A DNA stretch of 64,000 nt. Origin: Patescibacteria group bacterium (lineage in GTDB: Bacteria; Patescibacteriota; Patescibacteriia; SBBC01; CAIJZX01). Below are positions 7,971 to 62,715 of this stretch, one piece after another. Position numbers and translations under genes: made by a program. Every line of letters starts with the position of its first letter. Positions within the stretch are counted from its first letter, which is position 1. The stretch lies in NCBI GenBank assembly GCA_038065275.1, contig JBBTRH010000005.1:26466-90465 (forward strand), written 5' to 3'. The notes beneath the pieces were generated by a model. It saw nothing but the letters and a program-made list of their open reading frames with translations. It made no database searches and was not told the origin of the DNA.

Positions 7971-7998
7971 GCCCCGCTTTGCGGGGCGCGCCGCTAAA

Positions 7999-8277
7999 TT
8001 ATGGTAATAAATTACGCCTCATCCAGTCAGTCACATCTTTTGAAATATTAAAAGTCGCCCAATTACTATTTGGAACTTCGATAACCATTACTTTGTCAAC
8101 CGATTTAATTCTATCCCTAATGCCATCCCGAATTTGTGCAATATCTATAGGAGTTTTGATTATCCAAGTATTGGCACACGGTCTTGCCCATTGTGAGGCG
8201 GTTTTAAGGTACGCTATCAAATTCGGATAACTATTTTCCGTATAACTTAGCTGATAAGATATTAAGAATGATTTCAT
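7999..8277 (-). CDS. hypothetical 92-aa protein immediately downstream of the PIN-like gene
   Basis: AT-rich ORF, 3-nt gap to upstream stop; no recognisable motif. Confidence 0.4.
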   Translation of the reverse strand: MKSFLISYQLSYTENSYPNLIAYLKTASQWARPCANTWIIKTPIDIAQIRDGIRDRIKSVDKVMVIEVPNSNWATFNISKDVTDWMRRNLLP

Positions 8278-8280
8278 ATC

Positions 8281-9339: not shown

Positions 9340-9438
9340 GCTTGGACTATTTAACTTCAGATGGGTTATCTCTCATGGGCTTGTTGTGCCAATGTTATTA
9401 CAAATCACAGAATAAACTCACAAAAACATTACATGTGT

Positions 9439-10236
9439 CTAAAAAATAGTAGTGACTTTATTGTACAACATTGACAAACAATCCTGCTTCATACGGAATT
9501 TCGTCCCATGATTGTGTCCGGTGCGAGCATCAAAATCAACGAGTATTTTTCCCTCTTCAAGTGCTTTCAAAAACCCTTCAAAACTGAATTTCTGTAGCAT
9601 CATCACTTTTGTATAATGATAGTATTCTTTCTTTTTATTAACATAAACTTCGGCCTGGACGTAAAAGGTATTTAAAAGCTTTGTACCCGCTTTATGCTCT
9701 AAGTCATCGAATCCCCAGTACGGCTGTGGATTTAATTCGCCAAGCCCAACACGTTTTTTAACCAGTTCAAGCCATCCCTTGTGTCGTGCATCAACTCCAG
9801 ACGCTTTAAATGAAATTAAAATTTTACGCTTATTTCGGTCGATTACGACTTTGAAACCTCGATCACTACGCGATTGTCCATGGATTGTTTGCCTAAAACT
9901 CATTTCTCCTGCTGGATACTTTTTTCCGTCCTCTTGGTGAGCCCATCCATATTGTGGTAATAAAACCTGTGGGACAAAGCGAATCGCTCGTGGTGACGGT
10001 TCAATATGAAAAAGTGTCGTGAGTGAAGTAGAGTTAAGTCTTTGAGTTTTTAACTCCCACTCAGCGGCATTAGGGATTGGTAGGTTATTTTCCTTAATGC
10101 CCAGTAAATCTTCAAGTGTATTCCCAATGCCACCGGCGTTTCCTCGACGTGCATTTGGGACCCACCCCAATTCTGAAATCTCTTTTAGCCGCTCAACTAG
10201 TGCTTCTTTAGTATAAATGACTGGTTTCTTTGCCAT
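9439..10236 (-). CDS. type II restriction endonuclease, MvaI/BcnI-like
   Basis: ORF 9439..10323 trimmed to MAKKPVIYTKEAL; last gene of C-M-R operon; family assignment by recall, not search. Confidence 0.5.
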   Translation of the reverse strand: MAKKPVIYTKEALVERLKEISELGWVPNARRGNAGGIGNTLEDLLGIKENNLPIPNAAEWELKTQRLNSTSLTTLFHIEPSPRAIRFVPQVLLPQYGWAHQEDGKKYPAGEMSFRQTIHGQSRSDRGFKVVIDRNKRKILISFKASGVDARHKGWLELVKKRVGLGELNPQPYWGFDDLEHKAGTKLLNTFYVQAEVYVNKKKEYYHYTKVMMLQKFSFEGFLKALEEGKILVDFDARTGHNHGTKFRMKQDCLSMLYNKVTTIF

Positions 10237-10240
10237 ACAG

Positions 10241-10996
10241 TTATAAAAGTTTTGACTGGGATTGATGTTGCTTAATCCTTTTACGCGCCATTTCACAGTA
10301 ATCGGGAGAAATATCAATGCCAATATACTTGCGTTTATGGTTAATTGCGGAAATGGCCGTCGTCCCTGACCCCATAAATGGATCTAAAACTACTTTAGCG
10401 TCTGTTGCCGAAATTATTCGGTCAATTAACTTTACAGGAAACGCGGCAGGGTGTTTATTGTTCATTTCTTGGGTAAACTCCCACACATCTCCGAGAGCAT
10501 TTGCTTTATCGGCAAGCTTAAATTTTGGTTTAGCAATCAAATAAATTACTTCGTAAGTCGGTAAAAAGTAACCGGCGTTAAAATTCAACCCACCTTTTCT
10601 TTTCCAAATGATTATCTGGCGCACGGGAAAACCAGCCACAATATCTTGTCGATCTTGCAAAAGTCCCGCCTGAACACGCCATTTATGATTGTAAAAAATT
10701 GCGCCATTCTCAGGAATAATTCTTAGCATTTCGGTAAGGGAGTCTCTTTGCCACTTCACATACTTTTCGTGCGGCATACTGTCATCATGATGAGAGTACC
10801 CATTTTGAAGTGCCGCGTTTGCCCATTTTCCACCCCGACCATCTTTCATTCCGTTTCCAGTTGAATTTTTTAGGTTATACGGAGGCGAAGTAACGACTAA
10901 ATCTACCGACCCGTCGGGTATTTGTTTCATTACATCAACGGCATTTCCGCAAATATTTTTGTTGATAAAATCTAATGGATAGTTGAGCTTTTTCAT
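10241..10996 (-). CDS. DNA methyltransferase, beta-class amino-MTase (N4-cytosine or N6-adenine)
   Basis: DLVVTSPPYN (motif IV) N-terminal and FDPFMGSGTT (motif I) C-terminal = beta-class order. Confidence 0.8.
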   Translation of the reverse strand: MKKLNYPLDFINKNICGNAVDVMKQIPDGSVDLVVTSPPYNLKNSTGNGMKDGRGGKWANAALQNGYSHHDDSMPHEKYVKWQRDSLTEMLRIIPENGAIFYNHKWRVQAGLLQDRQDIVAGFPVRQIIIWKRKGGLNFNAGYFLPTYEVIYLIAKPKFKLADKANALGDVWEFTQEMNNKHPAAFPVKLIDRIISATDAKVVLDPFMGSGTTAISAINHKRKYIGIDISPDYCEMARKRIKQHQSQSKLL

Positions 10997-10997
10997 A

Positions 10998-11273
10998 TTA
11001 CTTTAGAAGATCATCACTGGAAATTTCTAACGCTTGAGCAAGTCTTGCCACTGTCGAAAGAGTCACGTTTCTTTTACCATTCTCAATGCCACTAATGTAC
11101 GCTCTGTCAGCGCCAATTTTCGAAGCAATGTCTCCTTGGGACATTCCTTTCTTCGTCCGTATCTTTTTGAGATTATCGCCTAAACGGGAATTGATCGTAT
11201 CGGTATTCACTTGACCAATATACTCCCTTGTTGCACTATAGAGCAATAGTGTACTATAGTACACAAAGCACAT
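10998..11273 (-). CDS. controller (C) protein, XRE-family HTH regulator of the R-M system
   Basis: MSQGDIASKIGADRAYISGIENGKRNVTLSTVARLAQAL HTH; first gene of C-M-R operon; true start probably internal (GTG ~11210). Confidence 0.65.
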   Translation of the reverse strand: MCFVYYSTLLLYSATREYIGQVNTDTINSRLGDNLKKIRTKKGMSQGDIASKIGADRAYISGIENGKRNVTLSTVARLAQALEISSDDLLK

Positions 11274-11352
11274 TGGGGAGCCGAAAGCGCGCGCACGGGA
11301 GGGCGGGGCAAGCGCTTATCTCTACAGGCGGCGCATCCCGTAGCAACGGGAT

Positions 11353-11393
11353 ACGAACCCCTCGGGCGGCGGGAAAATGCGGCGGCGGGGCGC
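11353..11393. repeat. IR-A right copy (reverse complement of 7930-7970)
   Basis: 41/41 identity in inverted orientation. Confidence 0.8.
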
Positions 11394-11486
11394 GGGCGGG
11401 CGGAATTCCCCCTTAGACCCCCTTCCGCCCGCCCGAATCGCCTAAAACTGCCCTTCAAAATAGGTTCGAGCGGCGTTCAGCAATTT

Positions 11487-11580
11487 CCACCAAATGAAAC
11501 TTCCGCGAAAGTCTACGGTCAAATTCCAGGGTTTAGCCAATATCCACCGCACGCTTTTATCCACCAGGCGGCGGTTCGTA
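11487..11580. repeat. IR-B left copy: 94-bp inverted repeat
   Basis: reverse complement of 13901-13994 with a single mismatch; creates artefactual ORF 11442..11672 (-) that mimics the recombinase C-terminus. Confidence 0.85.
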
Positions 11581-11736
11581 GCCCCAGAAGGGGCTAGGTA
11601 TGAAAATGGTCGTGTGATATTACCATTTTCGTACCTTCCAATTTTTTCCGGTTCCGCTCCGAAGCGGAACACGAAGCAAGTTTTTCCGAATCCCGCGCTT
11701 CACTTCCAGTAGTAAGAATGGTTAACTAATAGCACT

Positions 11737-12534
11737 ATGAGCATAAGAATTATCATGCGAGACAATAGCGGTAATAAGTTCTGGATTATTACCCCAAACA
11801 TTAGTATGTATAGCTTTGCGTCCAAATCAAAAAACGTGACTTTCTTGGAAATCTTTTATCGCTTTGCACAGGTTCTAGTTAAACCGCGGAAAGGGCTAAC
11901 AAAGGGTGAAGAGGAGAAGATACTTTTGTCGAGAAAACGGGTCTTGGTTGAGTTAAACAATAAGGTAATGGCGTTAAAATACCTTGCCAACGAATGTAAA
12001 AAGCAGGGCGAGAAATTAATTGCGAGAAAAGATAGCAAAAAGAGAATATACGACTATAAACCATATCAAGTTTTTCTGGCTCTTTGTGAAAGTTATCTGG
12101 ACACTGTACACAGTACCTACGATTGCATCGCTGATCTGGACGGGTTTTTAGGCAAGAAATATGCCCGTGCTATCAATAAAGAACAATGGTTTAAGATCGA
12201 TATGGATTTAAGAAACGTTTTTCATCACAACCAAAGCCCTCTAGTTACTATTGAGAAAGGGAAGGTAGATTTCACCATAGAAAAGCTACCAAGGAGCCCA
12301 AGATTTTTGACTCCGGCAATGAAAAACCCACACGGACGATACGAATTCTCTTTAGACCCAAAGGATTTGGGCGAAGACATTCTTACATTTCTTGAAAAAT
12401 GGGCAAAGCAATATTTGGATTTGATTGATGGCAACGAGAGCATTGACGCAATTGCGGGTTATAAAAAAGATGGTGGTGTAAGAACCAAGAAAGTCACCTT
12501 AAAAGAACTTATGAAACGAGTCGTTGCTACCTAA
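11737..12534 (+). CDS. hypothetical protein (265 aa) upstream of serine recombinase
   Basis: AT-rich ORF 6 nt upstream of recombinase start; no motif recognised; start may be an internal Met. Confidence 0.4.
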   Translation: MSIRIIMRDNSGNKFWIITPNISMYSFASKSKNVTFLEIFYRFAQVLVKPRKGLTKGEEEKILLSRKRVLVELNNKVMALKYLANECKKQGEKLIARKDSKKRIYDYKPYQVFLALCESYLDTVHSTYDCIADLDGFLGKKYARAINKEQWFKIDMDLRNVFHHNQSPLVTIEKGKVDFTIEKLPRSPRFLTPAMKNPHGRYEFSLDPKDLGEDILTFLEKWAKQYLDLIDGNESIDAIAGYKKDGGVRTKKVTLKELMKRVVAT

Positions 12535-12539
12535 AAACT

Positions 12540-14030
12540 ATGCGGTATTTTCTTTACGCTCGAAAATCAACCGAGGATGAAGAACATCAGATCATGTCCA
12601 TTGAGGCACAGCTCTTTGAGTTGTCCGAATATGCCAAGCGAGAAAAGATAACCATTGCCGAAAAGTTTATTGAAAGTAAAAGCGCGAAAAGTCCCGGTCG
12701 GGAAATTTTCGGCCAGATGATTGTCAAAATACAGGAAAGTAAAGAACCAATCGGCATTCTCGCTTGGCATCCTGATCGCTTGGCCCGAAATAGTATTGAT
12801 GGTGGTCAAATTATCTACCTCGTCGACGGCAAGAAAATCGCGGCCTTGCGTTTCCCGACATTCTGGTTTGAACCGACACCGCAAGGGCTATTCATGCTCC
12901 AAGTCGCGTTTGGCCAATCGAAATACTATTCGGACAACTTAAGCGAGAACGTGAAGCGCGGGATTCGTCAAAAACTCAGACGTGGTGAGTCCCCAAATTA
13001 TGCGGCAATCGGGTACGTCAATAATTTTAAAACCCGGACAATTGAACCCGATCCGTTCAAAGGGCGTGTCATCGCTAAAGCATTTGAAGAATATGCGAAA
13101 GGAATGCACACCCTCGAAAGTCTAGGCAAGCGTCTGAGTTTTTGGGGTATAGTCAGTCGGACCGGAAAGCCGCTCCCAAAAGCAACGTTGAGCCGAATGT
13201 TGACCAATCCGGTTCATTGCGGATTGATTCGGCATAATGGCGAAACATATCCGGGCGGTTTTGCCGCTAACGTCTCGATGGAGTTATTCGAAAAAGTCCA
13301 GAAAGTCTATAAGCAAAATCAAAAAGGTCATCATTTTCGTAAGCGTCATCATTTTGCTTTAACTGGACTATTGAAGTGCGGAGAATGTGGCGCGGCAATA
13401 ACCGCCCAAAATACCAAAGGTCATGGCGGTTGGTATGTGTATTATCGCTGTACCAAACGTCTTGGTCCTTGTAAGCAAGGATACATTCAACAAGAGCGGC
13501 TTTCCGATCTGATCCGCGCAAAGGTTCGAGAAGTTGCAATAAGCGAAGACTGGGCGAAGAAAATGTTGGATAAGGTAACGATGTGGGAAAATGAGATCGC
13601 CCAGTCTTCGCAGTCTTCCGCCCAAAATCTCAAAACAAGGATGAAGGAAACAGAATTACAGCTTGACCGCATAGTGAATGCTTTCCTTGATGGCTCTATT
13701 GAAAAGGCTGTTTATTTGGAAAAGAAAGATGCATTGATTAAAACTCAAACTGGCCTTGAACAGAAAAAGGCGGATTTTGGGCGGAAGACCCTTTATTGGA
13801 TCGAACCTTTGCGCCAGTGGATATTAGACGCTCAAAAGGCCGAAAAACTTGCTTCGTCGAACGATTTACCTGAATTGAAATCGTTCGCGGAAAAAATTGG
13901 AACGAACCGCCGCCTGGTGGATAAAAGCGTGCGGTGGATATTGGCTAAACCCTGGAATTTGACCGTAAACTTTCGCGGAAGTTTCATTTGGTGGGCCCCC
14001 CGGGACTCGAACCCGGAACTCTCAGCTTAA
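12540..14030 (+). CDS. large serine recombinase (resolvase/invertase N-domain + recombinase domain + zinc-ribbon)
   Basis: YARKSTEDE...SIEAQ catalytic Ser motif near N-terminus; 496 aa; Cys cluster CGECG...C..C; 3' end runs through IR-B and into the tRNA-Lys gene on the opposite strand. Confidence 0.8.
   Translation: MRYFLYARKSTEDEEHQIMSIEAQLFELSEYAKREKITIAEKFIESKSAKSPGREIFGQMIVKIQESKEPIGILAWHPDRLARNSIDGGQIIYLVDGKKIAALRFPTFWFEPTPQGLFMLQVAFGQSKYYSDNLSENVKRGIRQKLRRGESPNYAAIGYVNNFKTRTIEPDPFKGRVIAKAFEEYAKGMHTLESLGKRLSFWGIVSRTGKPLPKATLSRMLTNPVHCGLIRHNGETYPGGFAANVSMELFEKVQKVYKQNQKGHHFRKRHHFALTGLLKCGECGAAITAQNTKGHGGWYVYYRCTKRLGPCKQGYIQQERLSDLIRAKVREVAISEDWAKKMLDKVTMWENEIAQSSQSSAQNLKTRMKETELQLDRIVNAFLDGSIEKAVYLEKKDALIKTQTGLEQKKADFGRKTLYWIEPLRQWILDAQKAEKLASSNDLPELKSFAEKIGTNRRLVDKSVRWILAKPWNLTVNFRGSFIWWAPRDSNPELSA
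13901..13994. repeat. IR-B right copy (includes CCA end and 3' flank of tRNA-Lys)
   Basis: 93/94 identity to reverse complement of 11487-11580. Confidence 0.85.
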
Positions 14031-14063
14031 AAGGCTGATACTCTACCATTGAGTTAGGGACCC
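13992..14063 (-). tRNA. tRNA-Lys (anticodon UUU), CCA encoded at 13989-13991
   Basis: cloverleaf on minus strand: acceptor GGGUCCC/GGGGCCC, D-arm, anticodon loop CUUUUAA, T-arm CCGGGUUCGAGUCCCGG. Confidence 0.8.
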
Positions 14064-17741: not shown

Positions 17742-18041
17742 ATGTTCAACAAGCTCAAACAATTCAAAGACCTCCGTCACCAGGCCAAGGAAATGCAACA
17801 TACCCTGGCCCAGGAAACGGTCTACGCCGATAGCGCCCGCGGCAAGGTGCAGGTCGTGATGGACGGCAATCAGCACGTCAACGGCCTGACCATCGACCCG
17901 GAGTTACTTAAGCCGGAGCGCAAAACCGAAACGGAGAGGGCCGTCCAGGACGCCTTCAACGACGCGGTCAAGAAGTCGCAGATGGCGATGGCCAAGAAGG
18001 CTCGTGAGATGGGCCACCTCAACCTACCGGGATTGTCTTAA
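17742..18041 (+). CDS. ybaB: YbaB/EbfC nucleoid-associated protein
   Basis: 99 aa, MFNKLKQFKDL... family signature; classic ybaB-recR pairing. Confidence 0.8.
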   Translation: MFNKLKQFKDLRHQAKEMQHTLAQETVYADSARGKVQVVMDGNQHVNGLTIDPELLKPERKTETERAVQDAFNDAVKKSQMAMAKKAREMGHLNLPGLS

Positions 18042-18139
18042 CCCCGTTAGAAGTTTTCTTGATTGCCCTTGTAGCTGGTTTAACAATCATGCTCGTATGC
18101 GCATAAGGCGGTCGTTTATAGACAATAACTTCTAACGGA
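18042..18139. mobile_element. MITE-like element copy C (TIR CCCCGTTAGAAGTT)
   Basis: fills the whole ybaB stop to recR GTG interval. Confidence 0.6.
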
Positions 18140-18739
18140 GTGGCGACCTACCCGCCAGCGATTGCCCGTCTGCTTGATGCATTGACGACGCTCCCCGGCG
18201 TCGGCCCGAAAACCGCCGAGCGGTATGTGTTTTCGCTCTTGCGACAATCGCCGCAACGCTTGCATGAGCTTTCGCAAGCGGTTGAACACCTGCGCGATCG
18301 GATCGTACTCTGTTCGCGTTGTCATACTTTCGACGAGCAGAATCCCTGCCGTTACTGCGCCGACCAGAACCGCGATCAGTCGATTATTTGCGTCGTGACT
18401 GACTCCCCTGATGTCTTAGCGATCGAACACACCGGCGCCTACAAGGGCCAGTACCACGTTCTCGGCGGAACGGTCAGTGCTATGGAAGGCCGCGGGCCGG
18501 ACCAGCTCTTTATCCGCGATCTGGTCGTCCGCATTCCGAAAGAAAACGTAACTGAGGTCATCCTCGGGATGAATCCAGACATCGAGGGCGAGACGACGAC
18601 GCTGTATCTGAAAAAAGCGCTCGAGGGACTACCAGTAAAAATTACCCAGCTGGCTCGGGGCATACCGCAGGGCGGGGATGTAACCTACCTGGATGAAGCT
18701 ACTCTATCCGAAGCCATAAATCACCGACAAACGGCCTAA
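18140..18739 (+). CDS. recR: recombination protein RecR
   Basis: HhH LPGVGPKTAER, C4 zinc finger CSRCHTFDEQNPCRYC, Toprim domain; GTG start. Confidence 0.9.
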   Translation: MATYPPAIARLLDALTTLPGVGPKTAERYVFSLLRQSPQRLHELSQAVEHLRDRIVLCSRCHTFDEQNPCRYCADQNRDQSIICVVTDSPDVLAIEHTGAYKGQYHVLGGTVSAMEGRGPDQLFIRDLVVRIPKENVTEVILGMNPDIEGETTTLYLKKALEGLPVKITQLARGIPQGGDVTYLDEATLSEAINHRQTA

Positions 18740-35998: not shown

Positions 35999-37183
35999 TT
36001 ACTTGATGATCTTCGTCACCACGCCGGCGCCGACCGTATGGCCGCCTTCGCGGATGGCGAAGCGTTGCTGTTCTTCCAGCGCCACCGGGGTGATCAGCTT
36101 AATGACGAATTTCGATTGATCGCCGGGCATGACCATTTCCGTGCCGGCCGGCAGTTCGATCTCGCCGGTCACATCCGTAGTGCGAACATAGAACTGCGGT
36201 TTGTAGCCCTTGAAGAACGGGGTGTGGCGGCCGCCTTCCTCCTTGGTCAGGATCAGAACTTCCGCCTCGAACTCCGCGTGCGGGGTGACGGTGCCGGGTT
36301 TGGCCAGGACCTGGCCGCGCTCGACCTCTTCCTTCTTGGTGCCGCGCAGGAGCAACCCGGCGTTGTCGCCGGCCAGGCCGGAGTCGAGTTGCTTGTTGAA
36401 CATCTCGATGCCGGTGATGACCGTCTTCGCCGTCGGGCGGAGGCCGATGATTTCCACTTCGTCGTTGAGCTTGACGGTGCCGCGCTCGATCCGGCCGGTG
36501 ACCACCGTGCCGCGGCCCTCGATCGAGAAGATGTCTTCAATCGGCATCAGGAACGGTTTGTCCGTTTCCCGTTTCGGCGCGGGGATATACTCATCGAGCG
36601 TCTTCATCAATTCCATGATTTTCTCCTGCGCGGCCGCATCGCCTTCCAGCGCTTTCAAGGCCGAGCCGCGGATGATCGGGGTGGTGTCGCCCGGGAATTC
36701 ATATTTCTTCAGCAAGTCGCGAATTTCGACTTCCACCAGGTCGATCAGCTCGGCGTCGTCAACCGTGTCCACCTTGTTCAGGAAGACGACGATGTGCGGC
36801 ACGCCGACCTGTTTGGCCAGTAAGATATGTTCGCGGGTCTGGGGCATCGGGCCGTCGGCGGCGGACACGACTAAAATAGCGCCGTCCATTTGGGCCGCTC
36901 CGGTGATCATATTCTTGACGTAATCGGCGTGGCCCGGACAGTCGACGTGAGCGTAGTGCCGTTTGGCCGTTTCGTACTCGACGTGAGCAGTGGCGATGGT
37001 AATGCCGCGGGCCTTCTCTTCCGGCGCGTTGTCGATGTCGTCGACGCCCTTGTGCTGGGCGATGAAACCCTTGTTAGACAGGGTTTTCAAAATCGCGGCC
37101 GTGAGAGTCGTTTTGCCGTGGTCGACGTGGCCGATGGTGCCGACGTTGATGTGCGGCTTGCTACGATCAAATTTGTCTGTCAT
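35999..37183 (-). CDS. tuf: elongation factor Tu
   Basis: [19 protein letters not shown]-motifs; 394 aa. Confidence 0.95.
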
Positions 37184-37237: not shown

Positions 37238-37266
37238 ATTATAGCAGGGTGGAGGAATCCTGACAA
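37238..37266 (-). promoter_or_regulatory. sigma70-type promoter for tuf (TTGTCA -17- TATAAT)
   Basis: minus-strand CTTGTCA-N17-TATAAT about 55 nt upstream of tuf ATG, preceded by terminator-like CCGGGGCCGG+T6. Confidence 0.55.
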
Positions 37267-37326
37267 GTCTCGAGGGAAAAAACCGGCCCCGGACATGCAT
37301 GATGCATGAACTTTGGCTAAGGTTAG

Positions 37327-37427
37327 CCCCGTTAGAGGTGAGAACGATTAAGGATAATATATATTCAACAACAATGGTAATAACTACGGCCTAACAAAAA
37401 ACTTAACTATCCTCAGCTCTAACGGGG
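37327..37427. mobile_element. MITE-like element copy E (TIR CCCCGTTAGAGGTGAG; TSD TTAG)
   Basis: TTAG at 37323-26 and 37428-31. Confidence 0.65.
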
Positions 37428-37542
37428 TTAGCCTGGTTGGATGCTGGTGAGACGCACTTACAAAAAAGTTTATTTGGTTGCAGAAAGCAGAAATATGAAA
37501 TTCGGTAACAAATAACGTATAAGCCGCCTCCAATGGGGCTAA

Positions 37543-37579
37543 GAAAAAAAACAGACCCCTTTGCCGAAGCATTGGGGTC
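37543..37579 (-). terminator. intrinsic terminator (GACCCC-loop-GGGGTC + U8) on minus strand
   Basis: hairpin followed by UGUUUUUUUU on minus strand. Confidence 0.6.
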
Positions 37580-38040
37580 CGAGGCACAGAACAAGGAAAA
37601 GGTGCTGGTGGCTAAGTTGAGGCTGGACCTTGAGTGAGAAGGTATCACTCAACCTGGTCCGGGACCGTTCGCCTGATTGGGACTACATGGCTACTTGGTT
37701 GTTAGGGGTTGTCCTTCACTCGGACCCCGTGGCTCCGCTGCAGGCAGAGACCGGTCGATCCTGGACAATCTTCCTGGCGCAATAAGCGCTGGTTCCCTTT
37801 CCCGAAGCACCCTCCTTACTCCGTACCAGCATAGTATCCCGATGAAAAAATCCGGTAAAGCCGGTTTCTCCCCACCTCATCGACACCCTTTTCCACCGAT
37901 TTGTACACAGGTTGTCCCGAGGGATTATTGTAAGTGGCTGGTGTCGTTGAGGACAACCATCAAAAGTTTTCCTGATTCATCGAAATCGATTACTGAAATA
38001 CCGGCGTTGTCATGGCTACGCTCTGGAATGATGACCTTTA
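37580..38040 (-). ncRNA. candidate structured non-coding RNA locus, identity unresolved
   Basis: ~460 nt without credible ORF, three minus-strand terminator-like hairpins (38042-77, 37845-64, 37543-79), long local hairpins; no RNase P/tmRNA/SRP consensus recognised by eye. Confidence 0.3.
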
Positions 38041-38041
38041 C

Positions 38042-38077
38042 TCAAAAACACACCGCGCAGGTTTCAAACCTGCGCTG
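38042..38077 (-). terminator. intrinsic terminator for 38121..38633 gene
   Basis: GCGCAGGTT-loop-AACCTGCGC followed by GUGUGUUUUUGAG on minus strand, 40 nt after stop. Confidence 0.55.
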
Positions 38078-38120
38078 TGGAAAATGTATAGAGGCTAGCG
38101 GTTGTCTAATGGGATTCATA

Positions 38121-38633
38121 TTATTCGGCCGGCTTCCAATGACCCTCGGGCAAATCGCGAACGTAGACCGATAATTGTTCAATATCACAGCTTCCGCTCA
38201 TTCGTTGCTGACGGATGTTCTCCCAAACCGATTTGAACTGGTCATTGGGAATATGACTGACGACTGTGACGTGGTAGATATGACTTTTCCCCGGCATGTA
38301 TCGTCCATTATCAAACGCTGTTAATTCCGGAAAATCCTGGTCGAGCGCTTGAGCTACACGACCCGCTTCCTCTTGCCCGGGATCAACCCAAATAACATGA
38401 GCACCGGGATTACGAAACGCTTGCCAATCCTGAAACGTGATGCGGAAGGGATAGCGCAATGAAGATAGGCGCTGTTGAAGCTTAGCCGGTAGCGCTCGTA
38501 ACGGCCGGACGATGGTGATGTGCGGCGGGAGTGCGTTGGTTGTCCACCGATCATACGTTTGTCGCAACTGCGCAAGTTCCGTTCGAAATGGTTCGGGTAG
38601 GACGGCGACGATGATAAACTCTTGGTTCATCAA
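38121..38633 (-). CDS. 2H phosphoesterase (LigT/ThpR-like 2'-5' RNA ligase family)
   Basis: two H-x-T/S-x motifs (PHITIV, YHVTVV), 170 aa. Confidence 0.65.
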   Translation of the reverse strand: MMNQEFIIVAVLPEPFRTELAQLRQTYDRWTTNALPPHITIVRPLRALPAKLQQRLSSLRYPFRITFQDWQAFRNPGAHVIWVDPGQEEAGRVAQALDQDFPELTAFDNGRYMPGKSHIYHVTVVSHIPNDQFKSVWENIRQQRMSGSCDIEQLSVYVRDLPEGHWKPAE

Positions 38634-38697
38634 AAAAAGTATACCACAACCGCGTAGCCGCGGGCTGGAAAGCCCGCGGCTCTACTTTTCTTAAGCT

Positions 38698-38719
38698 CTC
38701 CTCCTTTCGTAAGGAGGGG
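38698..38719. repeat. anti-SD/SD hairpin CCTCCTT-TCGT-AAGGAGG
   Basis: second perfect hairpin AGCCGCGGGCT-GGAA-AGCCCGCGGCT at 38655-38682. Confidence 0.55.
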
Positions 38720-38767
38720 TGACCCACAATCTCCAGCACCATGTTCCGCGGAACTTTAGTAACATTT

Positions 38768-39439
38768 CTAAAAGCTTTTCTTTGGTTTCCGAACTGACTG
38801 TAATCGTGACTTAATACCGCTTGATAAAGTTCGGATACTTCCCAGATATGAAGTCTCATTGAGGTGAACGACTTCCGTTCGACCTTCGGGATGAATATTC
38901 AGTATCGTCAATCCTCCGTTAGACATAGAGAAATCTTCTCGTTCCACATCGGCTCCTCCTTCGACCATCAATTCGAGTACGGAGTAAAGAAAAAACCCGT
39001 GACTGACTACGAGAATTGTTTCATGGTCAGGTCGCTCTTTCACTCGCGTTAACCAGGTAGCCGCTCGATGTTTGACGTCGCGTAAAGATTCACCACCCTC
39101 TGGCTTCCAATCCCGAAAACCAAGACCTGAAGATTTTTCGGCTTCTTCACGTTCGGCCACCGTCCGTGATGCGAACACCCCCGTGTCACGTTCGCGGATG
39201 TCCCGATCGACGAGACGCGCGGTTTGCGGGTGATGTTCTGCTATGATGTCTGCGGTCTCTTGCGCCCGAGGTAAATTACTACAATAAATTACATCGATAT
39301 GCTCGTCGCGCAATCGTTGGGCGACAGCCTTAGCTTGTAACCTTCCGGTATCATTGAGACCAATAGTACTTGCTACGCCAGGGGCATGTTTATTTTTATT
39401 TCTATCCGTTTCGCCGTGGCGCACTAAAATACATTTCAT
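38768..39439 (-). CDS. histidine phosphatase (phosphoglycerate-mutase-like) family protein
   Basis: LVRHGET RHG motif; ORF trimmed to MKCILVRHGETD. Confidence 0.7.
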   Translation of the reverse strand: MKCILVRHGETDRNKNKHAPGVASTIGLNDTGRLQAKAVAQRLRDEHIDVIYCSNLPRAQETADIIAEHHPQTARLVDRDIRERDTGVFASRTVAEREEAEKSSGLGFRDWKPEGGESLRDVKHRAATWLTRVKERPDHETILVVSHGFFLYSVLELMVEGGADVEREDFSMSNGGLTILNIHPEGRTEVVHLNETSYLGSIRTLSSGIKSRLQSVRKPKKSF

Positions 39440-39646
39440 GCTTGGAATGTACCACACTTGGATAATATTTGACACCACACACCGCGGGTTCAGCCCTCCT
39501 GCCCTGCCTGTCTCGAGCTTGTCGAGGGAAGGAGGGCGCGGGGTGGCGGGAGAAACCCGCGGTGTGTGGAATGATAAAAGCATGGGCAGGCCAGTGATTA
39601 GGCCTTCGCCTTGCCGCCGATGCCATTGTCTGGGAGCCAATCGAGG

Positions 39647-39701
39647 ATCAGATAGACGCGCGTCCGCGATCCGGCATCAGATAGACGCGCGTCCGCGATC
39701 C
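39647..39701. repeat. tandem duplication, 2 x 26 bp with 29-bp period (ATCAGATAGACGCGCGTCCGCGATCC)
   Basis: two identical copies forming the last ~17 codons of the GNAT gene. Confidence 0.7.
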
Positions 39702-40139
39702 TGCCTGCCGACGGACGCGTCCAGTCAGATGAAAACCGAATTTCTTCCCCAGGGCAATGGACCTTTTATTCCGGCGCCACACAAACATCCGAGCGCGTTT
39801 AATACCGAGCTTTTGTATCCGGACACGAAGTTGGGTGGCAATAGTAGTCCCGTATCCATGTCCCCAAAGATTGGGACGGCCAATCATGATTTGGATTTCG
39901 GCCGGATCATGTCCGCGGACAGTGACATGGCCGATGGGCTGTTTTCCCTCTATGACCATCCAGTGACGAGCGCGGCGACTATGTGCCAACTGCCCGAAAA
40001 GCCGGTGCACATCGGTGGCGGATAGTGGCCGGTGGTCTCCGCTCGTTAAGTGAATCAGCCGCGGGTCGCGCCACCATCGGGAGAAATAGCGTTCATCAGA
40101 CAACCGAACACGTCGTAATGACAGTGAGGTTCGCTTCAT
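39648..40139 (-). CDS. GNAT-family N-acetyltransferase
   Basis: R/Q-x-x-G-x-G/A-like block RGHDPAEIQIMIGRPNLWGHGYGTT, 163 aa. Confidence 0.7.
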   Translation of the reverse strand: MKRTSLSLRRVRLSDERYFSRWWRDPRLIHLTSGDHRPLSATDVHRLFGQLAHSRRARHWMVIEGKQPIGHVTVRGHDPAEIQIMIGRPNLWGHGYGTTIATQLRVRIQKLGIKRARMFVWRRNKRSIALGKKFGFHLTGRVRRQAGSRTRVYLMPDRGRASI

Positions 40140-40272
40140 GATTCAACTATATCAACACGGACACACCCCGGGAAAGGAACGTCTGGAAGAAAATGAAACG
40201 TCGGACTAATCATGCCTTGGCCCTATCCCCCACAATCGCCTCGGCTACGTTTTGGGGTGGACTGGAGATTCC

Positions 40273-40695
40273 TTATTCCTTCTTCTTTTCGAATGTGCGT
40301 TTGAGTTCGATTCTCTTGGCCGCGTGGTCGAAGGTAACCTTGAAAAACTCAAAGAATCCAATCTGCCCAACCACGCCATGTGCTTGGCTACCCATATCCG
40401 GCATGAATCCGGCTTCAGTTTTGAATCTCCACGAACCGCCGATAATCATGGTTACCGGATGAATGTAGTATGTCCGAACGTCACCAGTGATACCGGCCAC
40501 TTCGTGACGACGTCCGCCCGTGACATCAAAACCCATGATCTCGGCCAACTGCGCGTCGAAAATGTTACGGTCGGCTCCGGAATCAACCAGAACTTCATAC
40601 GACACTGTCACACCAGCCCGCTCGATTTCAACCGCAACCACCGGGCGATAGATACCCGGTCCGTAGTTCTTGTAGTCAAATTTTAGTTCGGCCAT
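40273..40695 (-). CDS. retropepsin-like (clan AA) aspartic protease
   Basis: LVDSGADRN catalytic D-S/T-G-A motif; 140 aa. Confidence 0.6.
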   Translation of the reverse strand: MAELKFDYKNYGPGIYRPVVAVEIERAGVTVSYEVLVDSGADRNIFDAQLAEIMGFDVTGGRRHEVAGITGDVRTYYIHPVTMIIGGSWRFKTEAGFMPDMGSQAHGVVGQIGFFEFFKVTFDHAAKRIELKRTFEKKKE

Positions 40696-40886
40696 CCCGA
40701 ACCGACGTACGTCACCAGGCGCTCAGGCATTCGGGCTAACACTGGTTTTTTGTGGCCCTTGCGCTGGGCTTCATCCCAAGCCTGCTTCGCGGTTTTGCCG
40801 CTGCCAACCACCGTTCGTTCATCTGACTTTAGGGCGACCCAAAGCCCCTGATAGCGCTTGTATATTTCGGACCAATCGATGGCCAT
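40683..40886 (-). CDS. small hypothetical protein (67 aa) overlapping the retropepsin-like gene
   Basis: 13-nt overlap with downstream gene, suggesting co-translation. Confidence 0.4.
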   Translation of the reverse strand: MAIDWSEIYKRYQGLWVALKSDERTVVGSGKTAKQAWDEAQRKGHKKPVLARMPERLVTYVGSGWPN

Positions 40887-40945
40887 AGTGTATCAAGATT
40901 ATCGCCAAACTCCCAACATGTCAAGGCCCTTTGAAGGAACCTGAG

Positions 40946-43024
40946 TTAGGCCTTAACCCTTTCACCGATGATGGCCTCGGCCACATTCCGCGGCACGGCT
41001 TGGTAGTAGGCGAACTCCATCGAGTATGAGGCGCGGCCTTGGGTCATTGAACGCAAGGAGGTGGCGTAGCCGAACATTTCGCCCAAGGGCACGTGGGCGT
41101 CGACCACTTTGGCCAGCCCGCGGTTGGTCATGGCGTTGATCACCGCGCGTTTGCTGTTCAGGTCGCCGATGACGTCGCCCATGTTCGCTTCCGGCGTGAT
41201 GACCTCGACCTTCATGATCGGCTCGAGCAGGACGGGCTTGGCCCGGCGGGCGGCTTCTTTGAAACCGATGGAGCCGGCGACTTTGAAAGCCGCTTCGCTC
41301 GAATCGACTTCGTGGTACGACCCGTCAAAGACCGTGGCCTTGATATCAACCATCGGGTAGCCGGCCACTACGCCGCTGTCCATCGCCTCTTTTATGCCTT
41401 TATTGATCGGGGTGATAAACTCGCGCGGGATGACGCCGCCCTTGACTTCGTCGATGAATTCGTAGCCTTGGCCCGGCTCGTTCGGCTCGACGCGGATCCA
41501 GCAGTGGCCGTACTGACCGCGGCCGCCGGACTGCTTGATGTACTTGCCTTCGCCCTCGGCGGTGTGGGTGATCGTTTCGCGGTAGGCGACGCGCGGCCGG
41601 CCGACGTTGGCTTCGACTTTAAACTCGCGCTTCATCCGGTCGACGATGATTTCGAGGTGGAGCTCGCCCATGCCGGAGATGATGGTCTGGGCGGTTTCTT
41701 CGTCGGAGCGGACGCGGAAAGTCGGGTCTTCCTCGGCCAAGCGTGACAACGCGATACCCATTTTCTCCTGGTCTTGCTTCGTTTTCGGCTCGATCGCGAT
41801 GTCGATCACCGGTTCGGGGAAGACGATGTTCTCCAGCTTGATTGGGTGGTCGGGGTCGCACAGCGAATCGCCGGTAACCGTCCCTTTCAGGCCGACCGCG
41901 GCCGCAATTTCTCCGGCGAACACTTCGTCGACGTCCTCGCGGTGGTTGGCATGGAGCCGAACGATGCGGCCGATTCGTTCTTTGTCGCCGGTCGTGGTGT
42001 TGAGCACATAGGAACCGGCGGCTAAATGTCCGGCGTAGACGCGGAAGAAGACTAGCTTGCCGACGAACGGGTCGGTGGCGATTTTGAAGGCCAAGGCGGT
42101 AAACGGCGCGTCATCGCTGGCCGGACGCGTTATCTCGGCCGCGGTGGTTGGATCAATACCGGTCACCGGCGGAATGTCCAGCGGCGAGGGCAGGAAATCA
42201 TTGACCGCGTCGAGCAGGAACTGGACGCCTTTGTTTTTGAGCGCCGAGCCGCACAGCACCGGCACGAGCTTGTTGGCAACGACCGCTTTGCGCAACGCGG
42301 CTTTCAGTTCGGGAATCGTCGGCTCGGTGCCGCCGAGATATTTTTCCAACAACACGTCGTCGGTTTCACTAATCGCTTCGATAAGTTTGTGACGGTACTC
42401 TTCGACCCGATCCTTCATGTCGGCCGGGACGTCGACGTGTTCCCACTCCTTGCCCAGGTCATCTTTGTAGATCTCCGCTTTGCGCTCGAACAGGTCGATA
42501 ATGCCGGTGAATGTCTCGGCCGCGCCGATCGGCAGTTGAACCGGGTGCGCGTTGGTGGTCAGCCGCTCGTAGATGGATTTGATGTCGAAATAAAAGTCGG
42601 CGCCGATCCGGTCCATTTTGTTGATGAAACAAATGCGCGGGACGCGATACTTCTCGGCTTGGTGCCAGACGGTTTCCGACTGCGGCTCAACGCCGGCCAC
42701 TCCGTCGAATACGACCACCCCGCCGTCAAGCACGCGCAAGCTACGTTGGACTTCAACGGTGAAGTCGATGTGACCGGGAGTATCGATGATGTTGATGCGA
42801 TGGTCTTTCCAGAAGCAGGTCGTCGCCGCGGCGGTAATGGTGATGCCGCGTTCTTTTTCCTGCTCCATCCAGTCCATTTCCGCCGCGCCTTCGTGAACTT
42901 CGCCAATTTTATGTTTTTTACCCGTGTAGAATAAAATGCGTTCCGATACCGTGGTTTTCCCGGCATCGATATGCGCAATAATGCCTATGTTGCGCGTTTG
43001 TTCTAGAGAATATTCGCGGGGCAT
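40946..43024 (-). CDS. fusA: elongation factor G
   Basis: [18 protein letters not shown]; 692 aa. Confidence 0.95.
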
Positions 43025-58450: not shown

Positions 58451-58597
58451 TGCTTTCAGGTGATGATGTCCATAGAGTTAACCAAAATGTTCAAACACGG
58501 TTTCCGGCCCGCCGGTCCGGATCTTGGACTTTAGGGATGACGGCCCGCCGAACGAAGAGTTGCCATATTCCTTATGATAGCATAGTATTGAAACCGG

Positions 58598-58915
58598 TTC
58601 GGGGTATGGCGCAGTTTCCCGCCATGCGGCGGGATAAAGTCCGCGCGCATGAATGACCTCGAGCAACCCTCGCGCGGCTCAGGCGTGCGGGGCAAGGGTG
58701 CAATTTCTTTCCAACCTTCAGCTCGTCGGGTCGGGGTATGGCGCTAAAAATGCGCGTCCCGCCCCACTGTCGGGGATTAGCGCAGTTCCCCGCCATGCGG
58801 CGGGATAAAGTCCGCGCGCATGAATGACCTCAAGCCGGTAATTATATACTGGTTCGGGATAAAATGATGTGGGCGGAGTCGGGGTGTGGCGTAGCTGGTA
58901 GCGCGCTTGCATGGG
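58598..58915 (+). repeat. array of tRNA-Pro 5'-end fragments with two 55-bp direct repeats (58610-58664, 58777-58831)
   Basis: GTCGGGGTATGGCGCAG-like tRNA 5' segments at 58598, 58728, 58768, 58877. Confidence 0.6.
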
Positions 58916-59042
58916 GGTCGAGACGGCCGAAGAGCGAATGAACTGCTTCATTCGCGTGCCGTCGAGACGGGCAGCGCCGTGTTCCAAAGGAACAGGCGAT
59001 GCCCCGGAGCATGAGGTCGTTTACATTTTGGCGGCGGCGAGT

Positions 59043-59115
59043 CGGGGTATGGCGCAGTTGGTAGCGCGCTTGCATGGGGTGCAAGAGGTCGTGGGTTCGA
59101 GTCCCGCTACCCCGA
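59043..59115 (+). tRNA. tRNA-Pro (anticodon GGG)
   Basis: 73-nt cloverleaf: acceptor CGGGGUA/UACCCCG, D-arm GCGC-AGUUGGUA-GCGC, anticodon loop AUGGGGU, T-arm GUGGG-UUCGAGU-CCCGC; no encoded CCA; acceptor helix extendable by 9 further flanking bp. Confidence 0.75.
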
Positions 59116-59460
59116 CTCGCCGCCGCATCACATCAATTCGAGTCTCGCTACCCCGACCAAATAAGAAAAGTTAAGTCGAGTACCCGCGAAGGCTCCCGAA
59201 AACTTGACTTTTCTTATTTGGTCGAGTATTCTCAAAAGAGTCCAAACGGGGAGACGCAACGAGTCAGAAACTCCGCCGCCCTCATCAAAACCGCCAACCC
59301 CGCACTATGAATCTTGCGGATTCAAGTACGGGACAAGAGAACCCCCGCACCGCTTCGGGTGCGGGGCAGGCCGGAGAAAAATACCTGCCCCGTCGTTTTA
59401 CGGGGTCGGCTCGAACCACATTTTAAAAACAAATTTATTCATTATGAGCAATCTAAAATT

Positions 59461-60534
59461 ATGAAAAAGGGATTTGCATACGTCCCAGTCCTTGTTGTTA
59501 TATTTTTGGTCATTGCAGCTGGGGTCGTAGGATACTTTGTCGTAACGGCTAACAAAAAATCCACAACCAATGCTAATTCTATAGTTAGGAATGTCGGTAA
59601 TAATGTAAACATAATTTCCAACTCTGGTACCTCCGCCACAAACACGACTCCATCAAGCAATTCGAACAGCAGAACAAAATCTCTACCGATGCCAGTACCT
59701 TTAGCAAAATGGGATACTTCATACAATTCAGGTCTTAAAAATCCCCCCTCAACCCCAGCCGAAGGCCAAGCTTTGTGTGATTCGATAAATGATAATAATA
59801 CCAACACATGGCTTGGACCATTAGTAAATAAGAGTAAGTGTTTTGAAATGATGGTTGGCGGTTTTCACGATCCTAAATTCTGCGAGAAACTTGAATTTTC
59901 AACTGCCCCCGATACTCAACGCAGTCAACCATTTGACATTGGTATGGGCTGCATTGAGGACTACATAAGTCTTTACAAGAATTATGACTGCGCCTACCAT
60001 CAGAAAGTTGAAATTCGTGACCGCTGTTACTATGTTCTAGGCGTGCCAAACATGGTTAGTGATCCGGTTCGAGATTGTTTAAAAATTACTGATACGTTTC
60101 TAAAGAGTAGTTGCGAATCAGTGAACAAAGATTTTGATGCCGCTACTCCGATGCGACAGAATATTCAGGACTCCGTGATGGTTAGCTGTTTGCTTGGGCT
60201 TGAACCAAGTGAAGCTAAATATTTTTCCTCAAGCGGTACCATCTATAATGATTTTGTGAAAGAAGCAAGCAATCAAGGAAATATCGATAACTGTTCACAA
60301 TCAAGTTTCTTTCCTGATTCTGAACGGCAACGCGTGAAAGTACTGGTGGAAACGGACAAAGACCAGGATGGGTTGAATCTCTTTTTAGAAAATGTTTTTG
60401 GCACGGATGATTCGAAAGCTGATTCAGACGGCGACAGTCATCCTGACCTTCAAGAGATTCAAAATGGCTACAATCCTCTTGGTCCTGGTAAGTTAGAGGA
60501 TGCTGAAATTCTAGAAGCCAATACAAATTCCTAA
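59461..60534 (+). CDS. secreted/membrane-anchored cysteine-rich protein with C-terminal Asp-rich calcium-binding-like repeats
   Basis: ORF 59314..60534 trimmed to MKKGFAYVPVLVVIFLVIAAG signal anchor; DSDGDSHPDLQE near C-terminus. Confidence 0.5.
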   Translation: MKKGFAYVPVLVVIFLVIAAGVVGYFVVTANKKSTTNANSIVRNVGNNVNIISNSGTSATNTTPSSNSNSRTKSLPMPVPLAKWDTSYNSGLKNPPSTPAEGQALCDSINDNNTNTWLGPLVNKSKCFEMMVGGFHDPKFCEKLEFSTAPDTQRSQPFDIGMGCIEDYISLYKNYDCAYHQKVEIRDRCYYVLGVPNMVSDPVRDCLKITDTFLKSSCESVNKDFDAATPMRQNIQDSVMVSCLLGLEPSEAKYFSSSGTIYNDFVKEASNQGNIDNCSQSSFFPDSERQRVKVLVETDKDQDGLNLFLENVFGTDDSKADSDGDSHPDLQEIQNGYNPLGPGKLEDAEILEANTNS

Positions 60535-60689
60535 ACTTTCACTTAGAACTATTCCTAGAGAAAGATAGATTTGTAATTTTCAACGATCTAAGCGGAATCG
60601 CCGGCTCGTTGCGGCGCCCCGTTCGAACTTTCTCTAAAATACTCGACTGACGGGTGACCAATGCTCGAGTCCGGTATCCCCGACTCTGG

Positions 60690-60727
60690 TACATGAAGGT
60701 CGTGGGTTTAAGTCCCGCTACCCTGAC
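60690..60727 (+). repeat. degenerate copy of tRNA-Pro 3' end (att-like)
   Basis: GGTCGTGGGTTTAAGTCCCGCTACCCTGACC vs tRNA GGTCGTGGGTTCGAGTCCCGCTACCCCGAC; another copy at 59130-59160. Confidence 0.6.
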
Positions 60728-60952
60728 CAAAAAGATTTGATGATTTTTGTCCCTGGCTCACCGCGTCCTTTACGAATGTAAGCAGGCTTGATTCCCGAGG
60801 CCGAACAAAGGCCTGAGGCCGCTGCTGAACGACTCCGGTACTTCGCGAAGGAGCACTTGAGCGTCCTGAAGCAGTGTATTAGCCGCTGGGTCCGCTAGAT
60901 CCTGACCCCACGGGGTCAAGAGATATCGACCTCCCAAGGACGATGTATAGAA

Positions 60953-61054
60953 CCCCGTTAGAAGTGGAACGGATACTGCCCTCCGGATTCGTTTGAGGTC
61001 ATCCTGAAACTCTTTCTCACAACACATGCATAGTTCTCGCCACTTCTAACGGGG
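60953..61054. mobile_element. MITE-like element copy F (TIR CCCCGTTAGAAGTGG; TSD GAA)
   Basis: 15-bp perfect TIR. Confidence 0.65.
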
Positions 61055-62079: not shown

Positions 62080-62160
62080 TGGTGTCCTCCTCGGGTAAGG
62101 AACGGTTGGCGGGTACAGACCCAATGACGCGAGGCTACCAGAGGCCACGGCGGTAGTCAA

Positions 62161-62261
62161 CCCCGTTAAAAGTGAAGGTGGGCGGGATGCCATTTACGCT
62201 CAGTCAACATCATATCCCCGATTGAACTAATGATTACTTCGCGGGATCACTTCTAACGGGG
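62161..62261. mobile_element. MITE-like element copy G (TIR CCCCGTTAAAAGTGA / TCACTTCTAACGGGG)
   Basis: one mismatch in the left TIR. Confidence 0.6.
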
Positions 62262-62520: not shown

Positions 62521-62617
62521 ATAGGTATAGCCTTGGAACTGGCTAATGAGTATTGAGTTGGGAAGGTGCGAAGGAGCGATTGGGAAGTAAACTTACAACA
62601 ACCAAGAAAAAAGTCAA

Positions 62618-62715
62618 CCCCGTTAGAAGTGGATTGATCTTAACTCCAGCAATAATTAAGAAGAATAGGGGGCTTCCTTGTTTCGGGAAAACATGGTCTG
62701 GCCACTTCTAACGGG
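62618..62715. mobile_element. MITE-like element copy H (TIR CCCCGTTAGAAGTGG; TSD TCAA)
   Basis: TCAA at 62614-17 and 62716-19. Confidence 0.7.

Follow-up and report, generated by a model that had tools for sequence, protein, structure and literature searches.

A composite locus upstream of tuf in a Patescibacteria genome: an operon terminator, a phosphatase pseudogene stub and a probable accessory structured RNA gene

Organization of the LigT-tuf intergenic region

We analyzed a 64,000-nucleotide stretch of DNA, hereafter called the window, from a Patescibacteria group bacterium (NCBI GenBank assembly GCA_038065275.1, contig JBBTRH010000005.1, positions 26,466 to 90,465 of the forward strand), and we focused on a noncoding region upstream of tuf, the gene for EF-Tu. 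A gap of 938 nt separates a gene for a LigT-like 2H phosphoesterase (38121-38633; NCBI protein MEK7637017.1) from tuf (35999-37183), which is followed by rpsJ and then by the ribosomal protein operon. Both flanking genes, and the terminators, units and linker described below, lie on the minus strand. An earlier sequence-only reading had flagged 37543-38085 in this gap as a noncoding locus with three stacked minus-strand terminators and one or two RNA units of ~170-300 nt. Our analysis partly confirms this: the locus combines an operon terminator, the stub of a phosphatase pseudogene, and a probable accessory structured RNA gene of ~280 nt that belongs to no known family.

That the gap contains no credible open reading frame (ORF), as the sequence-only reading had stated, is borne out. 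The longest ORF (37677-38174, plus strand, 165 aa) is fragmented in the homologous region L002, and a six-frame pseudo-protein query of the locus, designed to catch spurious ORFs over homologous RNA loci, returned no matches among 5.8 billion proteins. The LigT family is itself rare, and its 4 matches in 5.8 billion proteins led to three contigs. One of these, L002 (Logan SRR22387783), has the intergenic region in full, with 85% identity, and is the only divergent homolog. In L003, only a hairpin repeat and the tuf promoter are found next to tuf, the RNA part being absent, and L001 stops 100 nt past LigT. The locus in a Hainich groundwater assembly (L094) is identical to that of the window, and this sequence is also found in assemblies ERZ1292631 and ERZ1292638.

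Reading from LigT toward tuf, the locus consists of a terminator (T1), an upstream segment (unit 1), a linker, a downstream segment (unit 2), and a second terminator (T2). Comparison with L002 reveals a mosaic of conservation: 81% identity in the leader and T1, 95.9% in unit 1 (38045-37876), 35% in the linker (37875-37827), 87.3% in the unit 2 core (37826-37582), 87% in T2, and 53% in the spacer after T2. As read from the alignment, unit 2 reaches ~93% when its outer helix and an 8-nt indel are left out. For the same pair of genomes, identity is 82% across LigT DNA, 62% at the four-fold degenerate sites of LigT, and 81% at the third positions of the first 21 tuf codons.

T1 (38044-38079; stem 38079-38051, U-run 38048-38044) was identified by terminator scan, folding, and conservation. 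It has the layout CAC-A-GCGCAGGUU-UGA-AACCUGCGC-G-GUG, then UGUUUUU, and folds with -18.7 kcal/mol (z = -3.75), its L002 counterpart with -16.3 kcal/mol. In L002, the T1 element stands after an intact His_Phos gene and not after LigT. That T1 serves the upstream gene or operon, as had been proposed, holds. T2 (37544-37581; stem 37581-37552, U8 37551-37544), identified by folding and conservation, has the layout CGGACCCC-AA-UGC-UUCG-GCA-AA-GGGGUCUG plus U8 and begins 2 nt beyond the helix that closes unit 2. It folds with -18.5 kcal/mol (z = -4.5) and is kept in L002 with an A-U to G-C compensatory change. A GC-rich hairpin, an adjacent U-tract, and retention in the relative, the features expected of an intrinsic terminator, are found together in T1 and T2 and not at 37864-37845. 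The hairpin at this third site (37864-37852, U-tract 37850-37845) has a 4-bp CCGG stem and folds with -8.9 kcal/mol, and it has no counterpart in L002 (-3.1 kcal/mol, z = +0.35). It sits in the linker, where it overlaps a promoter-like -35 element, and with just 35% identity of the two genomes in this stretch it does not qualify as a conserved terminator. Two of the three stacked terminators therefore stand, and the middle one does not. The chance level of a simple terminator scan is 1.9 ± 1.8 sites per 1.8 kb, counting both strands, and two strong conserved terminators on one strand within 540 nt exceed this level.

Structure, covariation and promoter-like site of unit 2

Unit 2 is a candidate RNA gene (37827-37544, ~280 nt including T2) with a core of 245 nt (37583-37827), as judged by folding and alignment. 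Its two ends are predicted to pair, 37827-37806 (GGUACGGAGUAAGGAGGGUGCU) with 37606-37583 (AGCACCUUUUCCUUGUUCUGUGCC), interrupted by a UU bulge. This closing helix comprises 21-22 bp in the minimum free energy (MFE) structures of both genomes and joins the first and last ~23 nt. Internal hairpins include H1 (37789-37777), H3 (37751-37731), and H5 (37652-37630). The last of these lies inside the long local hairpin that had been pointed out at 37621-37670, which is real: its inner stem carries a U-A to C-G compensatory change in L002. A variable loop of unit 2 is shorter by 8 nt in L002.

The folding z of the minus strand is -3.21 for the window and -3.65 for L002, with 0 of 200 shuffles as stable; the corresponding values for the plus strand are -1.45 and -1.43. 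The folding stability of unit 2 is strand-specific, in agreement with the earlier choice of the minus strand as the relevant one. In the outer closing helix, the letters differ between the genomes and are still paired (G-C to A-U, G-C to U-G, U-G to C-G, plus a 1-nt indel), and G-U accounts for 4 of its 14 pairs, a combination that would read as a C-A mismatch on the opposite strand.

Using a curated alignment of the window and L002, we obtained a consensus of 85 pairs, among which 6 are doubly changed and kept, 2 are singly changed and kept, and none is broken. Two of the six double compensations fall in the closing helix, and the remaining four are spread singly over H1, the base of H3, H5, and T2. 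Fourteen of the 25 unit 2 substitutions lie in pairs, all of them preserving pairing, while the other 11 and the 8-nt deletion are in unpaired positions. When the same 25 substitutions were placed at random 300 times, the mean number of double compensations was 0.79 and the maximum 4, compared with the 6 observed. The consensus energy of -109 kcal/mol was reached by none of these 300 placements (simulated mean, -83 kcal/mol). Covariation with a homologous intergenic region, which the sequence-only reading had suggested as a check and for which L002 alone was available, thus comes out in favor of structure, and both the strand-specific fold and the compensatory changes of the downstream ~280-nt unit are in keeping with a structured RNA gene.

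The fast-evolving linker (37828-37875) holds a promoter-like site for unit 2, read from the aligned sequences as a -35 TTTACC (37859-37854), a 17-nt spacer, and a -10 TACTAT (37836-37831). L002 has TTTACT-17-TAGCTT in the same register. The linker is almost fully diverged, yet TTTAC(C/T), exactly 17 nt, and TAnnnT are found in both genomes. The predicted start site would be at ~37827-37824, at the foot of the closing helix.

A His_Phos_1 remnant in unit 1

The 5' two-thirds of unit 1 (38041-37876) is a His_Phos_1 pseudogene remnant (37925-38041). This stub comprises 38 sense codons, translated as VKVIIPERSHDNAGISVIDFDESGKLLMVVLNDTSHLQ, followed by a TAA stop (37927-37925). It has no start codon, and a TGA stands in frame directly upstream (38044-38042). 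Four His_Phos_1 proteins of the clade, taken from the fusA-tuf gaps of relatives, match the frame 38023-37928 in tblastn searches with their last ~30 residues, C-terminus aligned to C-terminus, at E-values of 2e-5 to 1.3e-4. A hidden Markov model (HMM) built from five His_Phos proteins of the clade was tested on 1883 six-frame segments. The stub segment (38041-37928) scored 22.1 bits (E = 9.7e-6) and its L002 counterpart 23.4 bits (E = 3.8e-6), the match covering HMM positions 168-199, and the next-best of the 1883 segments had an E-value of 0.5. The general Pfam His_Phos_1 model (PF00300) gave no match on the 38-aa stub. In a tblastn comparison of 1339 relatives' ORFs with the locus, only the His_Phos matches on unit 1 form a consistent family (four proteins, one frame); other matches of similar E-value were unrelated.

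Like clade His_Phos_1 proteins, the stub has the C-terminal motif N-x-G-[IV]-[ST]-[IV]..EGK...LNDTSHL followed by a stop, and its five initial codons, together with the bases before them, align to the start context of intact paralogs, ATG AAA CTC ATC ATC. Those paralogs occupy the same genomic position. Unlike them, the stub lacks the catalytic core, including the RHG motif, and the start codon. It keeps ~5 N-terminal and 33 C-terminal codons, with roughly codons 6 to 165 gone. Given this remainder, the missing start codon, and the upstream in-frame TGA, the stub is a pseudogene, a His_Phos gene that has lost ~160 internal codons. The stub differs from its L002 counterpart at 7 positions, 5 non-synonymous and 2 synonymous (codons read from the alignment), indicating that it is not maintained as a protein. 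The upstream ~170-nt RNA unit is therefore set aside: it aligns to a degraded protein-coding gene, an outcome that the sequence-only reading had itself named as speaking against its proposal, and of the one or two units envisaged the downstream one is supported.

The remainder of unit 1 is the former 3' flank of the dead gene (37876-37924), 49 nt at 100% identity with L002. The 3' end of this flank (37888-37876) pairs with 37952-37940 of the stub, the two arms of a 13-nt inverted repeat being 92% complementary. The folding stability of unit 1 does not exceed that of shuffles on either strand (z = +0.34, -0.27, +1.03). Five of its 7 substitutions keep minus-strand pairs by wobble, a number reached by only 9 of 300 random placements; for the plus strand, the number is only 1 of 7. 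Conservation of the stub and of the 49 nt beyond its stop lies far above that of neutral sites, which is puzzling.

An intact His_Phos gene stands between LigT and T1 in L002 and is missing from the window (window 38100-38125 compared with L002:620-735 and L002:1375-1400). An AACC(G/C)C microhomology lies at the junction, and the arrangement is consistent with loss of this gene from the window by a precise deletion. This loss accounts for the differing upstream neighbors in the two genomes with no need for a mobile element.

Distribution of unit 2 and contents of the fusA-tuf gap

The closest relatives by EF-Tu are up to 94% identical and are labelled Candidatus Kerfeldbacteria or Patescibacteria, which assigns the window to a bacterium of the candidate phyla radiation (CPR). 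Unit 2 is absent at this site from six close relatives (L003, L087, L088, L090, L092, and L093), whose EF-Tu is 91-94% identical to that of the window where the full gene is known. Likewise, among EF-Tu relatives with available DNA, the five closest match the window upstream of tuf in no more than the tuf promoter and 5' untranslated region (UTR). A 20-mer from the unit 2 core had no match in a genome-collection scan, and exact-word scans of viral sequences and blastn against phages were also negative. In a metagenome scan, the 21-mer GGTGCTTCGGGAAAGGGAACC gave 3 matches, all attributable to chance: they lie in coding DNA (LGASGKGT) and have no flanking similarity. A nhmmer profile searched over 93 loci (860 kb) recovered the window and nothing else, and a unit 2 covariance model (R1) found nothing in 20 CPR loci, nor in L092 with filters off. 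So far, the unit 2 RNA has been seen as two sequence variants of one Kerfeldbacteria lineage.

fusA and tuf normally form a tight operon junction. In this clade, the gap between them holds variable cargo whose contents differ relative by relative: 1-2 LigT genes, 1-3 His_Phos_1 genes, GNAT, DUF5678, TPR, and others. In the window (38121-43024) and in L001, L003, L088, L093, and L094, the gap contains 1-6 accessory genes that differ among close relatives, and further cargo in the clade includes a retropepsin-like protein and an adenylate-kinase-like protein. The unit 2 RNA is probably an accessory, lineage-restricted gene in this variable site and not a housekeeping gene.

A different RNA-like element of ~230 nt occupies the same tuf-upstream position in L092 (L092:170-430; ENA ERZ978390, groundwater; EF-Tu 91% identical). 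Its closing helix comprises 19 bp (CUGAGCUAAGGUAGUAG / CUACUACCAGCUUGG) and is followed immediately by a strong terminator, its hairpins are capped by loops of GCAA and GAAA, and it folds with z = -5.2. Neither Rfam nor the unit 2 covariance model matches this element, and it shares no sequence similarity with the window. The presence of this unrelated element hints that the tuf-upstream site collects such RNA genes.

Comparison with known RNA families

At the gathering score, an Rfam search of the whole window found nothing at the locus, and its only matches were two tRNAs. With the threshold relaxed to E <= 10 on segments of 1.1 kb, 296 nt, and 251 nt, using lax filters and the units singly, no family emerged and only microRNA-type noise appeared on the hairpins. 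ARAGORN found no transfer-messenger RNA (tmRNA), and the two tRNAs it placed in the window are both far from the locus. An Rfam search of 17 relatives' loci yielded one 16S rRNA only, and a literature search on noncoding RNAs of CPR/Patescibacteria returned nothing relevant. The failure to match RNase P, tmRNA, signal recognition particle (SRP), and 6S RNAs by eye is thus upheld by Rfam and ARAGORN, and the relaxed-threshold scan that had been recommended gives the same answer. The further suggestion of a hidden essential RNA is unlikely: with unit 2 missing at this site from six close relatives, it is probably not a hidden housekeeping RNA, and the exact-word scans of the public collections returned no true copy.

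Individual candidates were also considered and rejected. For bacterial type A/B RNase P RNA, there is no match to the covariance models, which cover CR-I to CR-V and the P4 pseudoknot core. By eye, GAGGAAAGGUC of L002 can be compared with CR-I of RNase P, and GAUGAAU...ACGACA of unit 1 with J18/2 and J2/4. However, the CR-I-like word lies in the phosphatase remnant and has no P4 partner strand, and threading by eye put the words in the wrong order, inside the stub, with no P4 helix drawable. Neither a standard nor a permuted tmRNA, marked by a tRNA-like acceptor/T-arm domain and a tag reading frame, was matched at the locus by ARAGORN or Rfam. For SRP RNA, there is no covariance-model match, and the candidate hairpin at 37652-37630 has a 7-nt UACCUUC loop, which is not the helix 8 signature of a GNRA loop together with conserved symmetric and asymmetric loops. 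With respect to 6S RNA (RF00013), unit 2 resembles it in its apparent long irregular 5'-3' closing helix, in being a stand-alone gene of the abundant type, and in fast sequence change with the helix preserved. Unlike 6S RNA, its core consists of 5-6 predicted separate hairpins in place of a central bubble and terminal stem, several of them independent in both genomes, and at 245 nt is longer than usual; RF00013 does not match.

Unit 2 is also reminiscent of the orphan 'ornate' bacterial noncoding RNAs, such as the raiA motif RNA of about 200 nt: it spans a few hundred nucleotides, has a long-range helix around a multi-stem core, and is an independent gene with its own terminator and no explanatory partner gene nearby. 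Nevertheless, it matches none of the Rfam models for raiA, OLE, ROOL, GOLLD, and HEARO. One report describes raiA as present in over 2700 species (PMC12968392). In contrast, unit 2 has an extremely narrow distribution (two sequence variants), and its invariant junction nucleotides are not yet definable.

The bacterial Y RNA YrlA, which is encoded beside RNA-repair genes (rsr-yrlBA-rtcBA), offers another comparison. Like YrlA, unit 2 would be a structured RNA with a long terminal stem near RNA-end-processing enzymes, here the LigT-type 2H phosphoesterase and histidine phosphatases. The 10-mer GGUCCGAGUG of unit 2 is also present at the 5' end of human Y3 RNA. Unlike in Y RNA, however, this 10-mer lies in an internal hairpin and not in the terminal stem, and no Rfam Y RNA model matches. 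Unlike at YrlA loci, no Ro/Rsr (TROVE) gene is present among the 20 window ORFs scanned, and LigT and His_Phos genes occur in relatives that lack the RNA. More broadly, the RNA-partner genes looked for (Ro, reverse transcriptase, Cas, TnpB/IscB) were not found among those 20 ORFs. An internal duplication relating unit 1 to unit 2 was rejected as well, the four collinear short matches being about as many as expected by chance and absent in L002.

Interpretation of the locus

On balance, we lean toward reading the locus as a three-part composite of T1, a phosphatase stub, and an independent ~280-nt structured RNA gene, unit 2. T1 would terminate the upstream LigT/His_Phos operon. The stub of a second His_Phos_1 gene, left untranslatable by the internal deletion, would follow, and this deletion would predate the split between the window lineage and L002. 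Within the linker, a sigma-70-like promoter would start transcription of the RNA gene at ~37827-37824, the RNA would pair through the 22-24 nt at either end into a long irregular helix around a multi-hairpin core, and T2 would then stop transcription 2 nt past this helix. Our best guess, from anatomy alone, is that unit 2 acts as a stable folded RNA, for example as a protein-binding scaffold or decoy, since paired ends and constraint along the whole length suggest a folded body more than a short-seed antisense regulator.

Several observations weigh against this interpretation. Pairs preserved above chance, a generic sign of a structured noncoding RNA, are found across unit 2 with T2 in two sequences, and the consensus structure derives from the same pair on which it is tested; only two distinct sequences exist, the Hainich locus being identical to the window, so the covariation comes from one comparison. 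Judged against the MFE structures of the individual genomes, the substitutions break 8 pairs and keep 4, and for this reason only the closing helix, H1, the base of H3, H5, and T2 are well supported and the interior fold is only partly defined. Two of the six double compensations hinge on the position chosen for a 1-nt gap within the closing helix. The promoter was recognized at the level of consensus, and a +1 at ~37824 would lose the outermost 2-3 pairs of the closing helix. The pseudogene stub is even more conserved than unit 2, so that high identity here cannot be read as RNA function by itself. Recent recombination of the block may lie behind this identity, although that fits poorly with 35-53% stretches between 93-96% blocks. 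Finally, neither a partner protein nor a target was found, short complementarities within the window being at chance level.

An alternative is that nothing at the locus is functional. The block would then be the decaying tail of a His_Phos gene (stub, 3' UTR, and terminator), with its identity due to recent recombination or a sweep. Unit 1 is dead, yet 96% identical to L002 with mostly non-synonymous changes; the block is absent from other close relatives; and the site is a rearrangement hot spot, where an intact His_Phos gene was lost at a microhomology. We nevertheless judge this account fairly unlikely. A recent transfer should leave uniform identity, whereas the observed identity alternates between 35%/53% and 93-96% over tens of bases, with borders that coincide with helix and terminator boundaries. 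Unit 2 substitutions also spare pairs to an extent that no random trial reached, and folding stability is limited to one strand. A different possibility, which we regard as distinctly unlikely, is that units 1 and 2 form one ~500-nt transcript from ~38041 to 37544, with the stub exapted as a 5' domain and the linker serving as a variable loop and not as a promoter. The strong nucleotide-level constraint on unit 1 without coding, the minus-strand wobble pairs kept there, the lack of a conserved terminator between the units, and a perfect 9-nt complementarity of GGUUGUCCU (unit 1) to AGGACAACC (unit 2) are all in its favor. On the other side, unit 1 folds like shuffles on both strands, no promoter is visible between T1 and unit 1, full-length folds keep the two units independent, and the linker retains its promoter register in both genomes.

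A reading of unit 2 as a housekeeping RNA (6S, RNase P, SRP, or tmRNA) so divergent that covariance models miss it is very improbable. A stable-looking RNA with paired ends near the ribosomal protein operon of a reduced genome, in a window where Rfam matches nothing other than two tRNAs, might invite this view, as might the RNase P-like words noticed by eye. Against it stand the empty searches with Rfam and ARAGORN, the location and order of those words, a core that is multi-branched and unlike the 6S rod with its central bubble, and the absence of unit 2 at this site in the closest relatives and of its core 20-mer in the genome collection. Conservation owing to a small protein is hardly credible either. 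The 39-aa ORF at 37810-37691 is open in both genomes and has a GTG start preceded by a perfect Shine-Dalgarno-like AAGGAGG, but the spacing between GGAGG and GTG is zero, its substitutions (4 non-synonymous to 2 synonymous) look neutral, and conservation runs ~110 nt beyond its stop. There are no homologs among the 5.8 billion proteins and no Pfam signal in six frames of unit 2, and the alternative 46-aa ORF (37956-37816) is truncated and altered in L002.

If real, unit 2 joins the few large bacterial RNAs of no known function as an example of >240 nt whose ends pair and which has multiple hairpins, and it does so in a CPR lineage for which almost no noncoding RNAs are known. An RNA gene beside a dead coding stub that is conserved above live genes also bears on the origin of new RNA genes. 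As a speculative and rather improbable extension, by analogy with Y RNAs and Rtc genes, unit 2 (perhaps with the stub as a 5' domain) might represent a new class of large structured RNA, born in the 3' region of a dying phosphatase gene and working with LigT/histidine phosphatases. Were this so, the tuf-upstream site would be a nursery for fast-turnover accessory RNAs in CPR bacteria, of which the L092 element could be another case. The locus further illustrates that the absence of an ORF together with terminators in a reduced genome does not equate to a missing housekeeping RNA, half of the locus being pseudogene and the rest accessory.

Other features near the locus and in the window

The tuf promoter (37238-37266, minus strand) is near-consensus with an extended -10 (TTGTCA, 17 nt, TG-n-TATAAT), and it is kept together with the 5' UTR in all examined Kerfeldbacteria relatives. 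Between the RNA locus and this promoter lies what the sequence-only reading called element E, a member of a hairpin repeat family with the core CCCCGTTAGAG / CTCTAACGGGG. Copies are found in the window at 37323-37431, 18028-18154, 60947-60966, 62155-62174, and 62612-62631. The tuf-upstream copy is ~97% identical in L002, as read from the alignment, and is found in L003 too; more distant relatives have a shorter GGCTAACCTTAGCC hairpin in its place.

Farther away, tRNA-like direct repeats (58592-60727) surround tRNA-Pro (59043-59116). Partial copies comprise a 5' half at 58876-58923 and 3' ends at 59127-59157 and 60697-60727, and these repeats resemble fragments of tRNA genes or scars of integration. 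Next to tRNA-Lys (13989-14063) lies a region (5953-14063) that is probably a mobile or defence island. It encodes an AbiEii-type nucleotidyltransferase, a PIN_8 protein, an MvaI/BcnI restriction endonuclease, and a large serine recombinase, and it is flanked by a 93-nt inverted repeat with 99% complementarity (11487-11579 / 13902-13994).

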